In this document: positions 1 to 6,447 of the stretch, in pieces | Position numbering within the stretch: position 1 is the stretch's first letter | Layout: every line of letters starts with the position of its first letter | Assembly (NCBI GenBank): GCA_963674745.2 | Contig: CAXXDV010000001.1 | Location: 2,112,001 to 2,176,000, forward strand | Reading direction: 5' to 3' | DNA from: Desulfosudaceae bacterium | Lineage (GTDB): Bacteria; Desulfobacterota; Desulfobacteria; Desulfobacterales; Desulfosudaceae | DNA length: 64,000 bases | Notes under the pieces: generated by a model | What the model saw: only the letters and a program-made list of their open reading frames with translations | Databases searched by the model: none | What the model was told of the DNA's origin: nothing | Position numbers and translations under genes: made by a program

Positions 1-119
1 ATTACAATTTACCTTTACTGGCCGAAAAATTCAACTTGGTGACAATTACCATTTTGGCAACGAATGTCGATTTCAGCCAAAATTCTTTTTTTTATTTTTT
101 TCCCGTACAGAATCAGTGC
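1..119 (-). other. Partial ORF-less gene cassette (cassette 10), homologous to the cassette at 850-1127
   Basis: 1-126 aligns with ~1010-1134 (shared ctttactg, tggtgacaatt, tggcaacgaa, caaaattc(T)8a(T)6-7cccgtacaga, agtgcacttaac). Confidence 0.85.
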
Positions 120-246
120 ACTTAACGGCGGCAGCCAAAGCAGCCAGGGCTTCCACCGCCTTTATTAAAGTTGTTTGCTATTTAAGTCCCCCGGCTGTTC
201 AGAAACGCGCCCGCCCTGGCTGTCGTTTTGCGCTGCCTTGTTGGGA
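120..246 (-). repeat. attC site, family A (cassette 9)
   Basis: acttaac...cagccaaagcagccagggc...gccctggctgtcgttttgcgctg...gttggga, an imperfect palindrome. Confidence 0.93.
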
Positions 247-719
247 AATCTCCTTTTTAAACCAATTCGAATGCATACGACCAAGAGGTATGCAACCCCA
301 AAAACGAATATGAGCCATGCAAACTGGAGCCCGACGATAGTCCACATGCCAACTCCGGGGACGAGTGTCGCATTACTTGCGTTTGTAGGATCGTAGAAGA
401 CGACAACATATTCGTCAATTTTGTACTTCCGAAAAATATCCTTGGCGTCCATGTCATCGCCAAAAGAACGCACGCTTGACACATAAGAGTGGCCATCGAT
501 AGTGTAGCGGTAGGTGACGATTGGAGAGTTACTAATCGGCCTTCCTTGTGACGTCCGTTCATAATCAACACGAAGAATGGTTCCCTCAGTCTTAATCCAT
601 GATTCGCTTGCTTGCGCCTTGTGTAGGTTCTCGTATTCCAGGCACAGCAGAACGCCGCCCAACGCGATAAAGAAAACCGCCAAGGCAACTGCACGCAATG
701 CTGATGGTTGTTCCTTCAT
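165..719 (-). CDS. Cassette gene: DUF3592-like two-TM membrane protein; its 3' end runs into the attC
   Basis: N-terminal TM, W-x-x-T-x-G-x-I, 'VTYRYTIDGHSY', 'VFYDPTNASNATL', C-terminal TM. Confidence 0.8.
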   Translation of the reverse strand: MKEQPSALRAVALAVFFIALGGVLLCLEYENLHKAQASESWIKTEGTILRVDYERTSQGRPISNSPIVTYRYTIDGHSYVSSVRSFGDDMDAKDIFRKYKIDEYVVVFYDPTNASNATLVPGVGMWTIVGLQFAWLIFVFGVAYLLVVCIRIGLKRRFPNKAAQNDSQGGRVSEQPGDLNSKQL

Positions 720-723
720 TCAT

Positions 724-849
724 TCCCAACGTCTGCAGCCAAAGTAGCCAGGGCTTCCAGTGACTGACTTTAAGGTGGTTGATGTTCAATTTCCCCCGAA
801 TGTTCAAAAGCCGAATGCCCTGGCTATCATTTGGGCTGCTTGGTTAAGT
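724..849 (-). repeat. attC site, family A (cassette 8)
   Basis: tcccaac...gcagccaaagtagccagggc...gccctggctatcatttgggctgc...gttaagt. Confidence 0.95.
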
Positions 850-1127
850 GCCCGCATAATTCTGAAAGACTTTAACGACAGCATGGGCAAATAAATGAAA
901 ATGATATTTTTCTTTTTACGCCTTGTCCATCATGAACTTATGAAAACGGGCAGGTCTCTTTTCATCCGGACAAATATAGGCGCAAAATCAAACAGTCCCG
1001 CCAGATCAAAATACAGCTTATCTTTACTGATTAAAAATATCAATCTGGTGACAATTTCCATAGTGGCAACGAAGATCATTTTTCGTCAAAATTCTTTTTT
1101 TTATTTTTTCCCGTACAGATTAAGTGC
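850..1127 (-). other. ORF-less gene cassette (cassette 8); candidate promoter or structured-RNA cassette
   Basis: Bounded by complementary cores gttaagtgc (843-851) and gcacttaac (1126-1134). Only a ~49-codon minus-strand ORF is present, and it is interrupted in the homologue. Contains nested inverted repeats. Confidence 0.8.
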
Positions 1128-1251
1128 ACTTAACGTCCGCCACCACCGGCGAGCAGGGTTTGCGGACTTCGCTAAAGTGAGTTCAACTCCAAACTACGCC
1201 AAAACCAAAGCCGGCCGCCCCTGCGAGTCTGCGTGGGTGGTGTTGTTATAT
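1128..1251 (-). repeat. attC site, family B (cassette 7)
   Basis: acttaacgtccgccaccaccggcgagcaggg...ccctgcgagtctgcgtgggtgg...gttatat; closely similar to 2460-2584. Confidence 0.92.
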
Positions 1252-3052: not shown

Positions 3053-3319
3053 GAAAATATATTTTATAGTGATTCACAAAAATTTGCAGGGCTTTTCGTT
3101 ACAAAGTTTTGCAAAAAAGTACAGAAACCGTTTTTCATCTTTTCCGGATTGACTGGCGAATTCAAAAAATCCATTTTCCGGCTGATCAGAAACGCATGAT
3201 CTGATCGATGCCGGTGGTTCATTCGCAAAGATGAAAAATATATCTTTTTTCCCCTTTGTTTCAAATTCATCCTGCCAAAAATTATCGAGTAGCTCGATTT
3301 TCCAAAAAGCGTTTTATAC
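3053..3319 (-). other. Probably ORF-less gene cassette (cassette 4) with a multi-stem fold; the 68-aa ORF 3064-3270 is doubtful
   Basis: Cores gttgtgcg and cgcacaac. A perfect 12-bp inverted repeat (3131-3142/3227-3238) encloses two hairpins. Confidence 0.7.
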
Positions 3320-3447
3320 GCACAACGCCTTCAGCCAAAGGGCGCCAGGGCTTTCTCTGACTGACTTAAAGATGGATAATGTTCAATTCAGCACGGCTGT
3401 TCAAAATCCTAATGCCCTGGCGATCCTTTTGCGCTGAATTGTTATCC
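3320..3447 (-). repeat. attC site, family A (cassette 3)
   Basis: gcacaac...tcagccaaagggcgccagggc...gccctggcgatccttttgcgctga...gttatcc. Confidence 0.95.
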
Positions 3448-4854: not shown

Positions 4855-4885
4855 GCAGAACAATGTTATTAGATAGAATTTCTCG
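4855..4885 (-). other. attI site (crossover G|TT at 4861/4860)
   Basis: The minus strand reads ...ttctatctaataacattG|TTCTGCG. The core matches the first cassette's R'' (gttctgcg, 4417-4424), and there is no attC palindrome upstream. Confidence 0.85.
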
Positions 4886-5115: not shown

Positions 5116-6447
5116 ATGGATGAATTCACCAACTATCTGTTATCAAAAGCAATAGTCCCCCAGAAGCAGGTCCGGTATTATGTGAGCTGGTTAAAAACGT
5201 TTTTTCGTTTAATCGGTAAAGACCCGTCCGAGAATGTGTCTTCTGAAGAAATTAATCAGTTCTTAAAAAACCTGGCTAAAAGATCAGAGGGCTGGCAGGT
5301 AAAGCAGGCCGAACAGGCGATTCGAATTTTTCGTTATTACCAGGGCCGGCAGAAGGCGCCGGCTATTCCTGATGGCAGTGCGCATCAGCAGTGGAAAATT
5401 GCGTCACAAGAGATGAGAAATATGATCCGTTTGAAGCAGTTATCCTTGAAAACGGAAAAAACGTATTTCTCCTGGTTGAGACAGTTTTATGGCTATCTGA
5501 AAGGGGCTTCTCCGTATTCCCTTGACGACACCCACATTACAAATTTTCTGACGCATCTGGCAGTTGAAAGGAATATTGCGGCTTCCACTCAGGATCAGGC
5601 ATTTAACGCCCTGTTGTTTTTCTACCGGCATGTACTGGATAAAGAAGTCAGTCATCTGGGTGACGTGGTGCGATCAAAAAAAAGAAAGTGGCTTCCGGTG
5701 GTACTGACAAGGGATGAAGTGTCTCGTTTGTTTGAAAATATGCAGGGTGTAAGCCGGCTGATGGCGAAGGTAATTTATAGCGGCGGATTGCGACTTCAGG
5801 AATGCGTCAGGTTGAGAGTCAAGGATATTGATTTTGAACGCGACACGTTGGTGATCAAATTTGCCAAGGGCAATAAAGACAGAGAAACCTTGCTCGCAGG
5901 ATCCATAAGGGAAGACCTGAAAAACCACCTTGAAAAAGTGAAGGCGCTTTATGACCTGGACAGGGAAAATGACACACCGGGCGTGGAAATGCCCAACGCT
6001 CTGGATCGGAAGTATCCCAATGCCGGAAAAGAATGGCCCTGGCAATGGGTGTTCCCCTCGCAAACCTTGTCCAAAGACCCCCGTTCAAAAATTATCAGGC
6101 GGCATCATGTGCATTCGTCAAATTTGCAGAAACAGATCAAAACCGCCGCATTCAAGGCGGGTATCGCAAAACGGGTAACAACGCATACATTGCGGCACAG
6201 CTTTGCCACCCATTTACTGGAAGACGGTTATGATATCCGAACCATTCAGGAATTGTTAGGCCATGCCAGCCTGAAAACCACCATGATATATACCCATGTG
6301 GCCCAAAAAAACCGGCTGGGTGTGAGAAGCCCGCTGGATTCAATCCGGGAAAGCCCGGGATACAACTGCGCTAAGAGCGCCATGGTTTATATCCATGCAG
6401 ACCGGAAAAACCGGTTGTACGTGAAAAGTCCGCTGGACCGGTTGTAA
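5116..6447 (+). CDS. intI: Integron integrase, long form with an extra N-terminal SAM-like domain and a duplicated C-terminal segment
   Basis: R (GLRLQE), K (KGNKDR), HTLRHSFATHLL, LGH...TTMIYTH, and the integron-specific insert 'PNALDRKYPNAGKEWPWQWVFPS...DPRS...RRHH'. RBS GGAGG. Confidence 0.97.
   Translation: MDEFTNYLLSKAIVPQKQVRYYVSWLKTFFRLIGKDPSENVSSEEINQFLKNLAKRSEGWQVKQAEQAIRIFRYYQGRQKAPAIPDGSAHQQWKIASQEMRNMIRLKQLSLKTEKTYFSWLRQFYGYLKGASPYSLDDTHITNFLTHLAVERNIAASTQDQAFNALLFFYRHVLDKEVSHLGDVVRSKKRKWLPVVLTRDEVSRLFENMQGVSRLMAKVIYSGGLRLQECVRLRVKDIDFERDTLVIKFAKGNKDRETLLAGSIREDLKNHLEKVKALYDLDRENDTPGVEMPNALDRKYPNAGKEWPWQWVFPSQTLSKDPRSKIIRRHHVHSSNLQKQIKTAAFKAGIAKRVTTHTLRHSFATHLLEDGYDIRTIQELLGHASLKTTMIYTHVAQKNRLGVRSPLDSIRESPGYNCAKSAMVYIHADRKNRLYVKSPLDRL

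Follow-up and report, generated by a model that had tools for sequence, protein, structure and literature searches.

The window, a 64,000-nt stretch of the genome of a sulfate-reducer-type bacterium of the Desulfobacterales, carries a cassette array that lies beside an integron integrase gene and an attI site (Table 1). Two homologous cassettes without a gene are located within it, numbered 8 and 10 in a preliminary description of the locus, and these numbers are correct when counted from the attI crossover at 4861|4860. Cassette 8 had been placed at 850-1127; the location was right and the exact limits differ slightly: the body is now set at 1133..852 and the whole cassette at 1133..730, its first letters being the TT of the R' box upstream and its last the G of its own R' box. 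The motif coordinates given earlier, and the core gcacttaac shared by both copies, agreed with the sequence. In the upstream attC, the R' box GTTAAGTGC is complementary to this core (1126-1134 and 118-126). Cassette 10 runs off the window, and its remainder lies to the left (G000 C1:2111833-2112126, followed by its attC). When cassettes 8 and 10 were aligned, 101 of 127 columns were identical.

Alignment of the 27 copies present in the genome showed that similarity begins at G|TTAAGTGC and stops at ...GACG|TT in every copy, with unrelated sequence outside, and the crossover G|TTRRRY is found at both ends of all 27. The cassette has its own 3' attC with complementary R''/R' and L''/L' boxes. 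The bottom strand of this attC was predicted to fold into an imperfect hairpin with a folding energy of -21.4 kcal/mol and a z of -2.27, and the attC is near-identical in 24 of the 27 copies of the family alignment. The bodies contain 35-37% G+C, compared to 50.5% for the genome. The 404-nt unit is a discrete, gene-less integron cassette.

Table 1 Features of the cassettes and of the adjoining integron (positions in the window)
Feature	Position	Strand	Description
Complete gene-less cassette copy (cassette 8, subfamily A)	730..1133	-	404 nt; boundaries common to 27 genomic copies
Non-coding body of cassette 8	852..1133	-	282 nt; without coding signal, without Pfam match
attC of cassette 8	730..851	-	R'' GCACTTAAC at 851..843; R' GTT at 730..728
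First 125 nt of subfamily-B copy (cassette 10)	1..125	-	Runs off the window
Promoter-like site P1	1060..1089	-	TTGACG (1089..1084), 18 nt ending TGC, CACTAT (1065..1060)
P1 equivalent in cassette 10	51-80	-	TTGGCT (80..75), 18 nt, CAAAAT (56..51)
A-tract GGGAAAAAATAAAAAAAAGAATT	1090..1112	-	UP-element position of P1; cassette 10 equivalent at 81-104
Promoter-like site P2	901..929	-	Best consensus match, TGGACA-17 nt-TATCAT, 10/12; near attC
Opposite-strand promoter-like site	875..902	+	ACGACA-16-GAAAAT; TAAAAT in most copies, 9/12; kept in 26/27
Inverted repeat ATGAAAA-N12-TTTTCAT	940..965	.	Centred ~58 nt upstream of predicted P2 start
Integron integrase gene of the array	5116..6447	+	TIGR02249, 434.9 bits (cut-off 265)
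attI crossover of the array	4861|4860		attI end CTATCTAATAACATnG|TT, common to a second integron

Copy number, mobility and distribution of the family

The locus had been described as holding homologous, mobile cassettes without a gene, and this was confirmed by the recovery of 27 full-length copies with exactly shared boundaries, which fall into two subfamilies, A and B (BLAST E 1e-82 to 1e-150). A genome-wide attC search gave ~240 matches that fall in arrays, and the family, spread over six arrays, accounts for ~11% of these ~240 cassettes. Two attC classes were modelled, and of the 224 bodies that they delimit 24 belong to this family, by far the largest; the runner-up has eight, and comparison of the gene-less family with this second-largest one gave only 7-nt chance matches. 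A sense ORF of at least 50 aa was found in 199 of the 224 bodies and was absent in 25, of which 24 belong to the gene-less family.

Each of the 27 copies lies on the strand of its array. Two are joined directly to attI, beside an intI gene or an intI fragment, and of the four arrays adjoining such a gene or fragment, two begin with the family. The genome encodes two full-length IntI proteins. Twenty-one pairs of copies differ at three positions or fewer; both flanks are unrelated in 19 of these pairs and shared in none, and identical copies are present on different contigs. The occurrence of near-identical copies among unrelated neighbours therefore indicates that integrase recombination moves the unit one cassette at a time, also into attI. 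Copies tended toward adjacent pairs and not toward even spacing (five pairs, compared to ~3 expected by arithmetic from the copy and cassette counts), although the excess was not significant. A role in re-seeding transcription along the array, proposed earlier, was not supported by this arrangement, which is unlike regular spacing. The arrays also hold a 2.7-kb family in four copies, which was identified by Pfam as an IS91-family element; this match ruled out a group II intron as its identity.

The search for relatives that had been advised at the outset returned 27 copies in this genome and none in 40 related genomes, where BLAST gave only three matches of 22-24 nt. In 400 genomes of the order, with two candidates scored per genome, none was found at E <= 1e-5, and exact-pattern scans gave 0 matches in genome contigs (one scan, with a 20-mer) and in metagenome contigs (two scans). 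Close copies were present in sediment metagenome contigs (Logan contigs of four runs from three studies), one of which is ~87% identical over 431 nt, and in one run the copies have neighbours different from those seen here. Three other assemblies carry the cassette, as seen through read-through ORF calls. With many paralogues in one genome and homologues in only very close relatives, the family is a paralogous non-coding one in the sense of Boucher et al. (2006).

Promoter-like sites and variation between copies

Six sigma-70-like sites, three per strand, were identified in the cassette, each kept in at least 23 of the 27 copies. P1 had been put forward as an UP-like/extended -10 promoter. The motif is in place and 24 of 27 copies retain it, but its standing as the promoter of the cassette was not established: it matches the consensus at only 8/12 positions, with TG, and retention is equal (23-27 of 27) for five other sites, two of them on the cassette strand and three on the opposite one. 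P1 scored under the threshold of the promoter consensus scan, and its -10 hexamer differs by subfamily (CACTAT, 3/6; CAAAAT, 4/6). The A-tract next to it is present in 27/27 copies, with a length that varies by 1-2 nt, and on the opposite strand forms a T-tract that follows a weak hairpin. P2, for which a start near 894 was predicted, would read through attC into the next cassette (ORF 719..165). It is kept in 24 of 27 copies, in both subfamilies, with the first or third base of the -10 changed in five of those. The P2 -10 is altered or lost in eight of 27 copies, and purifying selection on the promoter is therefore not visible. The full subfamily-B cassette contains four promoter-like sites, compared to 0.7 +/- 0.9 in shuffled sequences, and cassette 8 only two, compared to 0.9 +/- 0.9.

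Pairwise variation in subfamily B was 4-8% in the body and 5-10% in the attC loop. Variation within the cassette was lowest in the attC stems, with a diversity of 0.3-0.6%, and the only other clearly less variable segment is one 20-nt window of the body (alignment columns 161-180), which is as invariant as the stems. The inverted repeat at 940..965 partly overlaps this window, and could conceivably be an operator. Subfamilies A and B differ only within columns 41-160, while the rest of A nests within the diversity of B, a pattern that looks like recombination rather than constraint. Within the diverged segment, the longest conserved runs are 10-12 nt, which is the expectation, by arithmetic, at ~27% random divergence; conservation of the flanks says little because these are shared by recent descent. 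DGR-like variation was considered and rejected, as inspection of the alignment by eye found that the A versus B differences are not restricted to adenines.

Promoter cassette, selfish cassette and other readings

We tentatively favour the reading, to which we give slightly less than even confidence, that this is a gene-less cassette which was amplified by the integron integrase(s) to 27 copies in six arrays and which acts on its host as a promoter cassette. The integron integrase(s) of the Desulfobacterales genome would mobilise and amplify the 282-nt AT-rich body together with its canonical attC, one or more cassette-strand promoters of the sigma-70 type would start transcription inside the array, and this transcription would pass through attC into the downstream cassettes. 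The best promoter candidate is P2 (TGGACA-17-TATCAT, 929..901), and the UP-like/extended -10 site at 1089..1060 is a second possible promoter. As is expected of a promoter cassette, the unit holds no protein gene. The effect on the host is suggested by precedent: in Vibrio, sense-strand promoter activity was reported for 25 of 30 gene-less cassettes, whose promoters, according to the same report, in-silico calls could not predict (PMC11014356), and ORF-less cassettes of Treponema are also reported to drive sense transcription (Tansirichaiya et al. 2019, PMC6557892). By analogy, promoter activity of the present family is plausible.

A strong rival to the promoter cassette, although we judge it somewhat unlikely, is a purely selfish cassette. 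The unit would be a non-coding passenger that multiplied solely through an attC which is a good integrase substrate and through replicative resolution, which can duplicate a cassette once it is excised, and any promoter activity would be an unselected accident of AT-rich DNA. Its abundance (27 copies, ~11% of cassettes) and the identical copies in different arrays and at attI are consistent with this reading, as is a diversity that is lowered at the attC stems (0.3-0.6%) and not generally in the body, where the 20-nt window at columns 161-180, invariant like the stems, is the exception that argues against it. The promoter hexamers are not especially conserved, the A/B difference within columns 41-160 is recombination-like, and the 10-12-nt runs match random divergence of ~27%, all of which fits a passenger; however, with copies as recent as these, a lack of visible selection does not decide the matter. 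These arrays seem to purge useless cassettes, given that 199 of the 224 attC-bounded cassettes have a sense ORF of at least 50 aa, and yet the gene-less one persists, and does so in two diverged subfamilies. A selfish origin is moreover compatible with promoter activity. The same alternative was proposed for the paralogous non-coding cassettes of Vibrio, as reported by Boucher et al. (2006; PMC1382264).

Unlikely, in our estimate, is a true integron parasite, a 'hyper-mobile' cassette under selection only via its recombination site. In this case P2 (929..901) would transcribe attC, favour extrusion of the hairpin and aid spread of the cassette. Such a parasite with a self-promoting P2 would explain why the cassette is the commonest, its attI position in two integrons, and the invariance of the attC stems and of a short block upstream.

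More doubtful is a cassette-borne gene for a small regulatory RNA like sRNA-Xcc1, which would produce either a ~200-nt sense RNA or an antisense RNA with a + strand start near 909 and, behind a hairpin, an end in the T-tract 1095-1109. The preliminary description had suggested a ~200-nt RNA, and as a structured RNA this was not borne out. Neither a conserved structure, nor a terminator, nor an RNA family was identified: Rfam searches with limits of E = 1 and E = 5 were without a match; fold z-scores for both strands of both subfamilies were -0.61, +0.15, +0.50 and -0.15; the alifold consensus of the copies of this genome contained no pair changed on both sides on either strand; and the terminator scan of cassette 8 and of a full subfamily-B cassette found no terminator-like site. 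These results argue against an RNA product, whereas retention of the opposite-strand site ACGACA-16-TAAAAT in 26/27 copies speaks for one. On the same strand, subfamily B has an 8-bp hairpin abutting 8+7 consecutive T; the corresponding place in subfamily A is taken by another hairpin, of 7 bp, but this lies 5-6 nt distant from the T-run. Small RNAs borne on cassettes are known, according to work cited in PMC6557892.

It is improbable that the cassette is a cis-acting DNA element that is not a promoter, for example an antisense transcription stop or insulator, formed by the hairpin and T-tract facing intI, or a protein-binding site, in which the A-tract bend or the ATGAAAA-N12-TTTTCAT repeat would affect how attC folds or how the integrase acts. 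All 27 copies have the A-tract, the repeat at 940-965 shares part of its length with the body's least variable window, and antisense effects of gene-less cassettes are documented in PMC11014356. However, no terminator-like site was called, conservation of the flanks says little given their recent descent, and no binding protein is known.

A small-protein gene is highly improbable, be it the sense ORF (49 aa) found in subfamily A or an opposite-strand ORF of 73-128 aa. An opposite-strand ATG ORF of at least 65 aa is open in 25 of 27 copies and was annotated by gene callers in three other assemblies, but its frame differs between subfamilies and between copies, in subfamily B it exits the cassette into whichever attC is upstream, the sense ORF is restricted to subfamily A, and no Shine-Dalgarno motif was seen by eye before any ATG. 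The earlier statement that the cassettes are not conserved as protein holds across the 27 copies, in which reading frames shift and no single frame is kept with an excess of synonymous changes. In subfamily B, 60 of 77 variant alleles lie inside the long opposite-strand ORF, distributed 23/17/20 over the codon positions, with 16 synonymous and 44 non-synonymous substitutions, and the synonymous fraction is 0.17-0.32 across all six frames. Pfam gave no match for the cassette ORFs, and protein matches were limited to those three other assemblies, where read-through ORFs had been called on this same cassette.

Comparison with known gene-less cassettes

Paralogous non-coding cassettes and promoter cassettes are both kinds that have already been described. 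Like the Vibrio families of Boucher et al. (2006; PMC1382264), as they are presented there, the present family is gene-less, without BLASTX or ORF signal, has many paralogues in arrays and has homologues only in close relatives. Copy numbers given for those families are 45 in V. vulnificus CMCP6 and 34 in YJ016, compared to 27 here, and the same two explanations were offered, a selfish cassette or a promoter or other function useful to the integron (PMC1382264). In contrast to the single superintegron of Vibrio, the host is a Desulfobacterales bacterium with several integrons and integrase-less arrays; the 282-nt body is shorter than those reported for the Vibrio families, to which it is likened by features and not by sequence (PMC1382264). 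Unlike what was reported for Vibrio, one family makes up almost all gene-less cassettes of the two modelled attC classes (PMC1382264).

The promoter cassettes of Vibrionaceae (Blanco et al. 2024, PMC11014356) are, by that account, likewise gene-less, AT-rich and located in long arrays, with sigma-70-like motifs on both strands, and the expected action is the same, namely sense transcription downstream through attC sites that do not terminate it. Their activity was measured (25/30 sense-active, with starts mapped by 5'RACE; PMC11014356), whereas the present family is known from sequence alone. They are 491-666 bp in length (PMC11014356), compared to 404 bp here, and the features described for them in that account include neither a position at attI nor an amplification like the present one, to 27 copies. 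The ORF-less Treponema cassettes came from an oral metagenome, and their promoter activity was assayed in E. coli (PMC6557892). First-position ORF-less cassettes are rare according to the same source (PMC6557892), but here two of four intI-adjoining arrays start with the family. A small RNA that acts in trans, sRNA-Xcc1, carried on a Xanthomonas integron cassette and cited in PMC6557892, is likewise a case of a gene-less cassette, with an RNA product; compared with it, the present cassette has no structure, terminator or Rfam family that would support such a product.

Since 2006 it has been a standing question whether abundant gene-less cassettes are selfish or of use to the array. To our knowledge, only data from Vibrio and Treponema have so far addressed it. 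The present family provides a clean case outside these genera, with ~11% of ~240 cassettes, two subfamilies, copies at attI in two integrons and identical copies across arrays. Should the copies be promoters, transcription of these long arrays, the integrase-less ones included, would in large part start internally; otherwise the family would well illustrate a cassette whose propagation serves itself.

Cassettes and arrays of the window and the genome

The left end of the window lies inside an integron array whose cassettes are ordered leftwards on the minus strand. The NrdD encoded in the window shared 72-82% identity with NrdD proteins of Desulfobacterales MAGs, and the host is judged to be a Desulfobacterales-type bacterium. 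Alignment of cassette 8, a complete gene-less cassette, with cassette 10, a partial copy at the window's left edge, gave 101 identical columns out of 127. The bottom strand of the cassette 8 attC folded into an imperfect hairpin, as expected (-21.4 kcal/mol, z -2.27). Each motif of the preliminary description was found at its assigned position, and the R' box GTTAAGTGC has the 'core' gcacttaac as its complement.

BLAST searches of the genome (5.55 Mb, 3 contigs) bore out the proposed family of homologous ORF-less cassettes and enlarged it to 27 full-length copies. Subfamily A comprises 10 copies including cassette 8 (96.6-100% identity to cassette 8), and subfamily B 17 copies including cassette 10 (83.7-87.4%). 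Similarity began exactly between G and TTAAGTGC and ended after the same attC, between GACG and TT, in 27 of 27 copies, with unrelated DNA outside. The start of subfamily A (window 1121-1134) is a perfect 14-nt palindrome, TTAAGTGCACTTAA, so that an R''-like box directly follows the R' box; subfamily B has TTAAGTGCACTGAA at this position.

Approximately 240 attC sites in 15 clusters were located with two HMMs built from upstream attC sites, the large arrays containing 88, 45, 24 (the window's array), 22, 20 and 16 sites. For these sites tblastn identified just two full-length copies of intI, plus a partial gene and a fragment, and no integrase match (tblastn E <= 1e-10) lay alongside the arrays of 88, 45 and 22 sites. 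Clustering of 224 attC-bounded bodies, a census covering only cassettes bounded by the two modelled attC classes, yielded families of 24, 8, 4, 4, 3, 3 and 3 members, then pairs. The studied family was by far the largest; its total of 27, about 11% of all cassettes, includes three copies with an upstream neighbour other than a modelled attC. A sense ORF of at least 50 aa was lacking from 25 of the 224 bodies, 24 of which belonged to this family; at least one other gene-less repeat, a 219-nt unit, falls outside the census. The second-largest family, unrelated to it in sequence, has eight near-identical genomic copies, a body of 266-268 nt and a 68-aa sense ORF with no Pfam match.

The 219-nt unit was always positioned exactly at the attC crossover, beginning with TTGAGGCTGTAG after GACG and ending with CCTACAGACTCG before the TTA of the next cassette. 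Its terminal inverted repeats are imperfect, GTT stands at both sides, and it adjoins copies of the studied family at two places. The unit would be a micro-cassette whose recombination site is atypical, or else a MITE-like element targeting the attC core. Also within cassette arrays are four copies of an element of ~2.7 kb, which encodes a 251-aa tyrosine recombinase (Phage_int_SAM_4 and Phage_integrase) and an IS91-family Y2 transposase (Y2_Tnp and Zn_Tnp_IS91).

Features of the arrays and cassettes (plain numbers, window positions; C1 and C3, contigs of the genome assembly G000)
Feature	Location	Strand	Remarks
Integron integrase gene	5116-6447	+	TIGR02249 434.9 bits, cut-off 265
attI crossover of the window's integron	between 4861 and 4860		
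Cassette 8, complete	1133 to 730	minus	404 nt
Cassette 8 body	1133..852	minus	282 nt
Cassette 8 own attC	851..730	minus	
Cassette 10	from 125, continues beyond window edge	minus	
P1, promoter-like site	1089..1060		A-tract at UP-element position, TTGACG/TTGGCT, 18 nt ending TGC, CACTAT/CAAAAT
P2, best promoter-like site, near attC	929..901	minus	TGGACA-17-TATCAT, 10/12 match, both subfamilies
Second-largest family, window copy	3056-3323	minus	sense ORF 3270..3064
219-nt unit, four in tandem	C1:1492051-1492925		outside window
219-nt unit, singles	C1:903003-903225, 1484507-1484732, 1489928-1490154, 1502812-1503038, 1506714-1506936, 2275088-2275310		all outside window
~2.7-kb element	C1:2102500-2105400 (L194); C1:1737966-1740628; C1:2280502-2283395; C3:2332171-2334931		
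Integrase-less arrays (88, 45, 22 attC)	C1:1480177-1531334, C3:1821274-1857916, C1:2266562-2289173		
Copies with hybrid attC	C1:1523231-1523521, C1:2106390-2106680, C3:29520-29813		

Mobility and divergence of the family

Twenty-one pairs of copies had three or fewer differences over 292 aligned positions. Both flanks were unrelated in 19 of these pairs and one flank in 2; no near-identical pair had both flanks in common. Identical copies occurred on separate contigs, in separate arrays, and two copies adjoined attI: C3:29520 beside a full-length intI, and C1:906366 beside an intI fragment, where the attI end (CTATCTAATAACATnG followed by TT) is shared with the window's own integron. The unrelated flanks, the identical copies in different arrays and the copies at attI together show that the family spreads as single cassettes through site-specific recombination, with attI x attC insertion as one of its forms, and not by segmental duplication.

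Outside this genome, contigs from four public runs in three studies covered parts of 728-1158; one of these, an 854-nt sediment-metagenome contig, had 57 differences over 431 nt. Three ORF calls in other assemblies were read-throughs of subfamily-B copies. No match longer than 24 nt was obtained in representative genomes of 40 relatives (BLAST), a search of 400 genomes from the order, with two candidates scored per genome, gave none at E <= 1e-5, and exact-pattern scans of large genome and metagenome contig collections gave no match.

Divergence of 15-36% between the subfamilies was confined to columns 41-160 of the alignment. Elsewhere the figure was 0.3-10%, equal to the diversity within B. 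Subfamily A is therefore a recent mosaic, in which a B-type backbone carries a central segment derived from a more distant relative. That the flanks are so sharply conserved reflects recent descent rather than constraint. Within B, pairwise variation was 4-8% in the body and 5-10% in the attC loop, and was clearly lower only in a 20-nt window of the body (columns 161-180) and in the attC stems, both at 0.6%.

Three copies carry a hybrid attC, in which the 5' half is of the family type and the loop and 3' half match the attC type upstream of cassette 10 (window 119-250); the body of one, C3:29520, mixes subfamily-A and subfamily-B blocks. These hybrids and the block mixture suggest that cassettes have exchanged sequence by homologous recombination or gene conversion. 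The subfamily-B body contains CCAAATGATA after GAAC (C1:2111975-2111984, in the copy just left of the window), resembling the R''-L'' start of the family attC (AAC..GCCCAAATGATAGCC, window 816-835). This may represent the remnant of an older attC, the body then being a fusion of two cassettes, or the resemblance may be due to chance (estimated 10-mer match probability about 0.03).

Coding potential, RNA structure and promoter-like sites

A sense ORF of 49 aa was found in subfamily A only. The long opposite-strand ORF, uninterrupted in 25 of 27 copies, changes frame from one subfamily to the other and among some copies; that of subfamily B continues past the cassette edge into the upstream attC, whichever this is. 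Of 77 variant alleles within subfamily B, 60 fell in the opposite-strand ORF, at codon positions 23/17/20, with 16 synonymous and 44 non-synonymous; across all six frames the synonymous fraction was 0.17-0.32. The cassette ORFs had no Pfam match. The inconsistent frames, the lack of synonymous excess and the absence of Pfam matches agree with the earlier view that the cassettes are not conserved as protein.

The ~200-nt RNA that had been postulated found no structural signal. Rfam searches of both strands gave no match, whether for the window copy (up to E = 1) or for a copy of subfamily B (up to E = 5). Fold z-scores on the two strands did not differ from shuffles (cassette 8, -0.61 and +0.15; a subfamily-B copy, +0.50 and -0.15), the alifold consensus of 22 distinct sequences contained no two-sided base-pair changes on either strand, and the terminator scan called no site within the cassette. 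By eye, an opposite-strand hairpin followed by a long T-run was persuasive in subfamily B but weak in subfamily A.

P1, the site on which the proposal of a mobile promoter cassette had centered, was in place in 24 of 27 copies. It matched only 8 of 12 consensus positions and was absent from the consensus-scan listing. Five further promoter-like sites, two of them on the strand of the cassettes and three on the other, were equally kept, in 23-27 copies. Transcription from P2, predicted to start near 894, would cross the attC of its cassette and enter the following one (ORF 719..165). P2 is at least as good a promoter candidate as P1; its -10 was changed in five copies and absent in three. Cassette 8 had 2 promoter-like sites versus 0.9 +/- 0.9 in dinucleotide shuffles, and a B copy 4 versus 0.7 +/- 0.9. 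The choice among these sites is beyond sequence alone, and Blanco et al. (PMC11014356) found that, for gene-less cassettes, predicted promoter strength did not correlate usefully with the measured strength.

Relation to known gene-less cassettes

Highly paralogous non-coding cassettes have been described from Vibrio, two V. vulnificus strains having 45 and 34 copies; such cassettes were reported from close relatives only, and were proposed to be selfish or useful to the integron, e.g. as promoters (Boucher et al. 2006, PMC1382264). Promoter activity was demonstrated for ORF-less Treponema cassettes, and ORF-less cassettes are described as seldom first in the array (Tansirichaiya et al. 2019, PMC6557892). 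Blanco et al. (2024, PMC11014356), who named the category 'promoter cassettes', reported that 25 out of 30 gene-less cassettes of Vibrio were active as promoters on the sense strand.

From this precedent and the motifs, we tentatively propose that the family cassette acts as an internal sense promoter. The main rival is a purely selfish cassette, a reading that fits the diversity pattern rather better than a promoter does and that we consider somewhat unlikely. The selfish and promoter readings are compatible and not mutually exclusive. Less likely are an RNA product, a different role in cis, and a small protein. The element itself is shown to be a non-coding, integrase-mobilised, amplified cassette. 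The family fits a known kind, that of paralogous non-coding or promoter cassettes; compared with those described by the three studies, its particular features are its host group, its spread across several integrons and integrase-less arrays, its near-monopoly among gene-less cassettes in the census of two attC classes, and the presence of two copies at attI.
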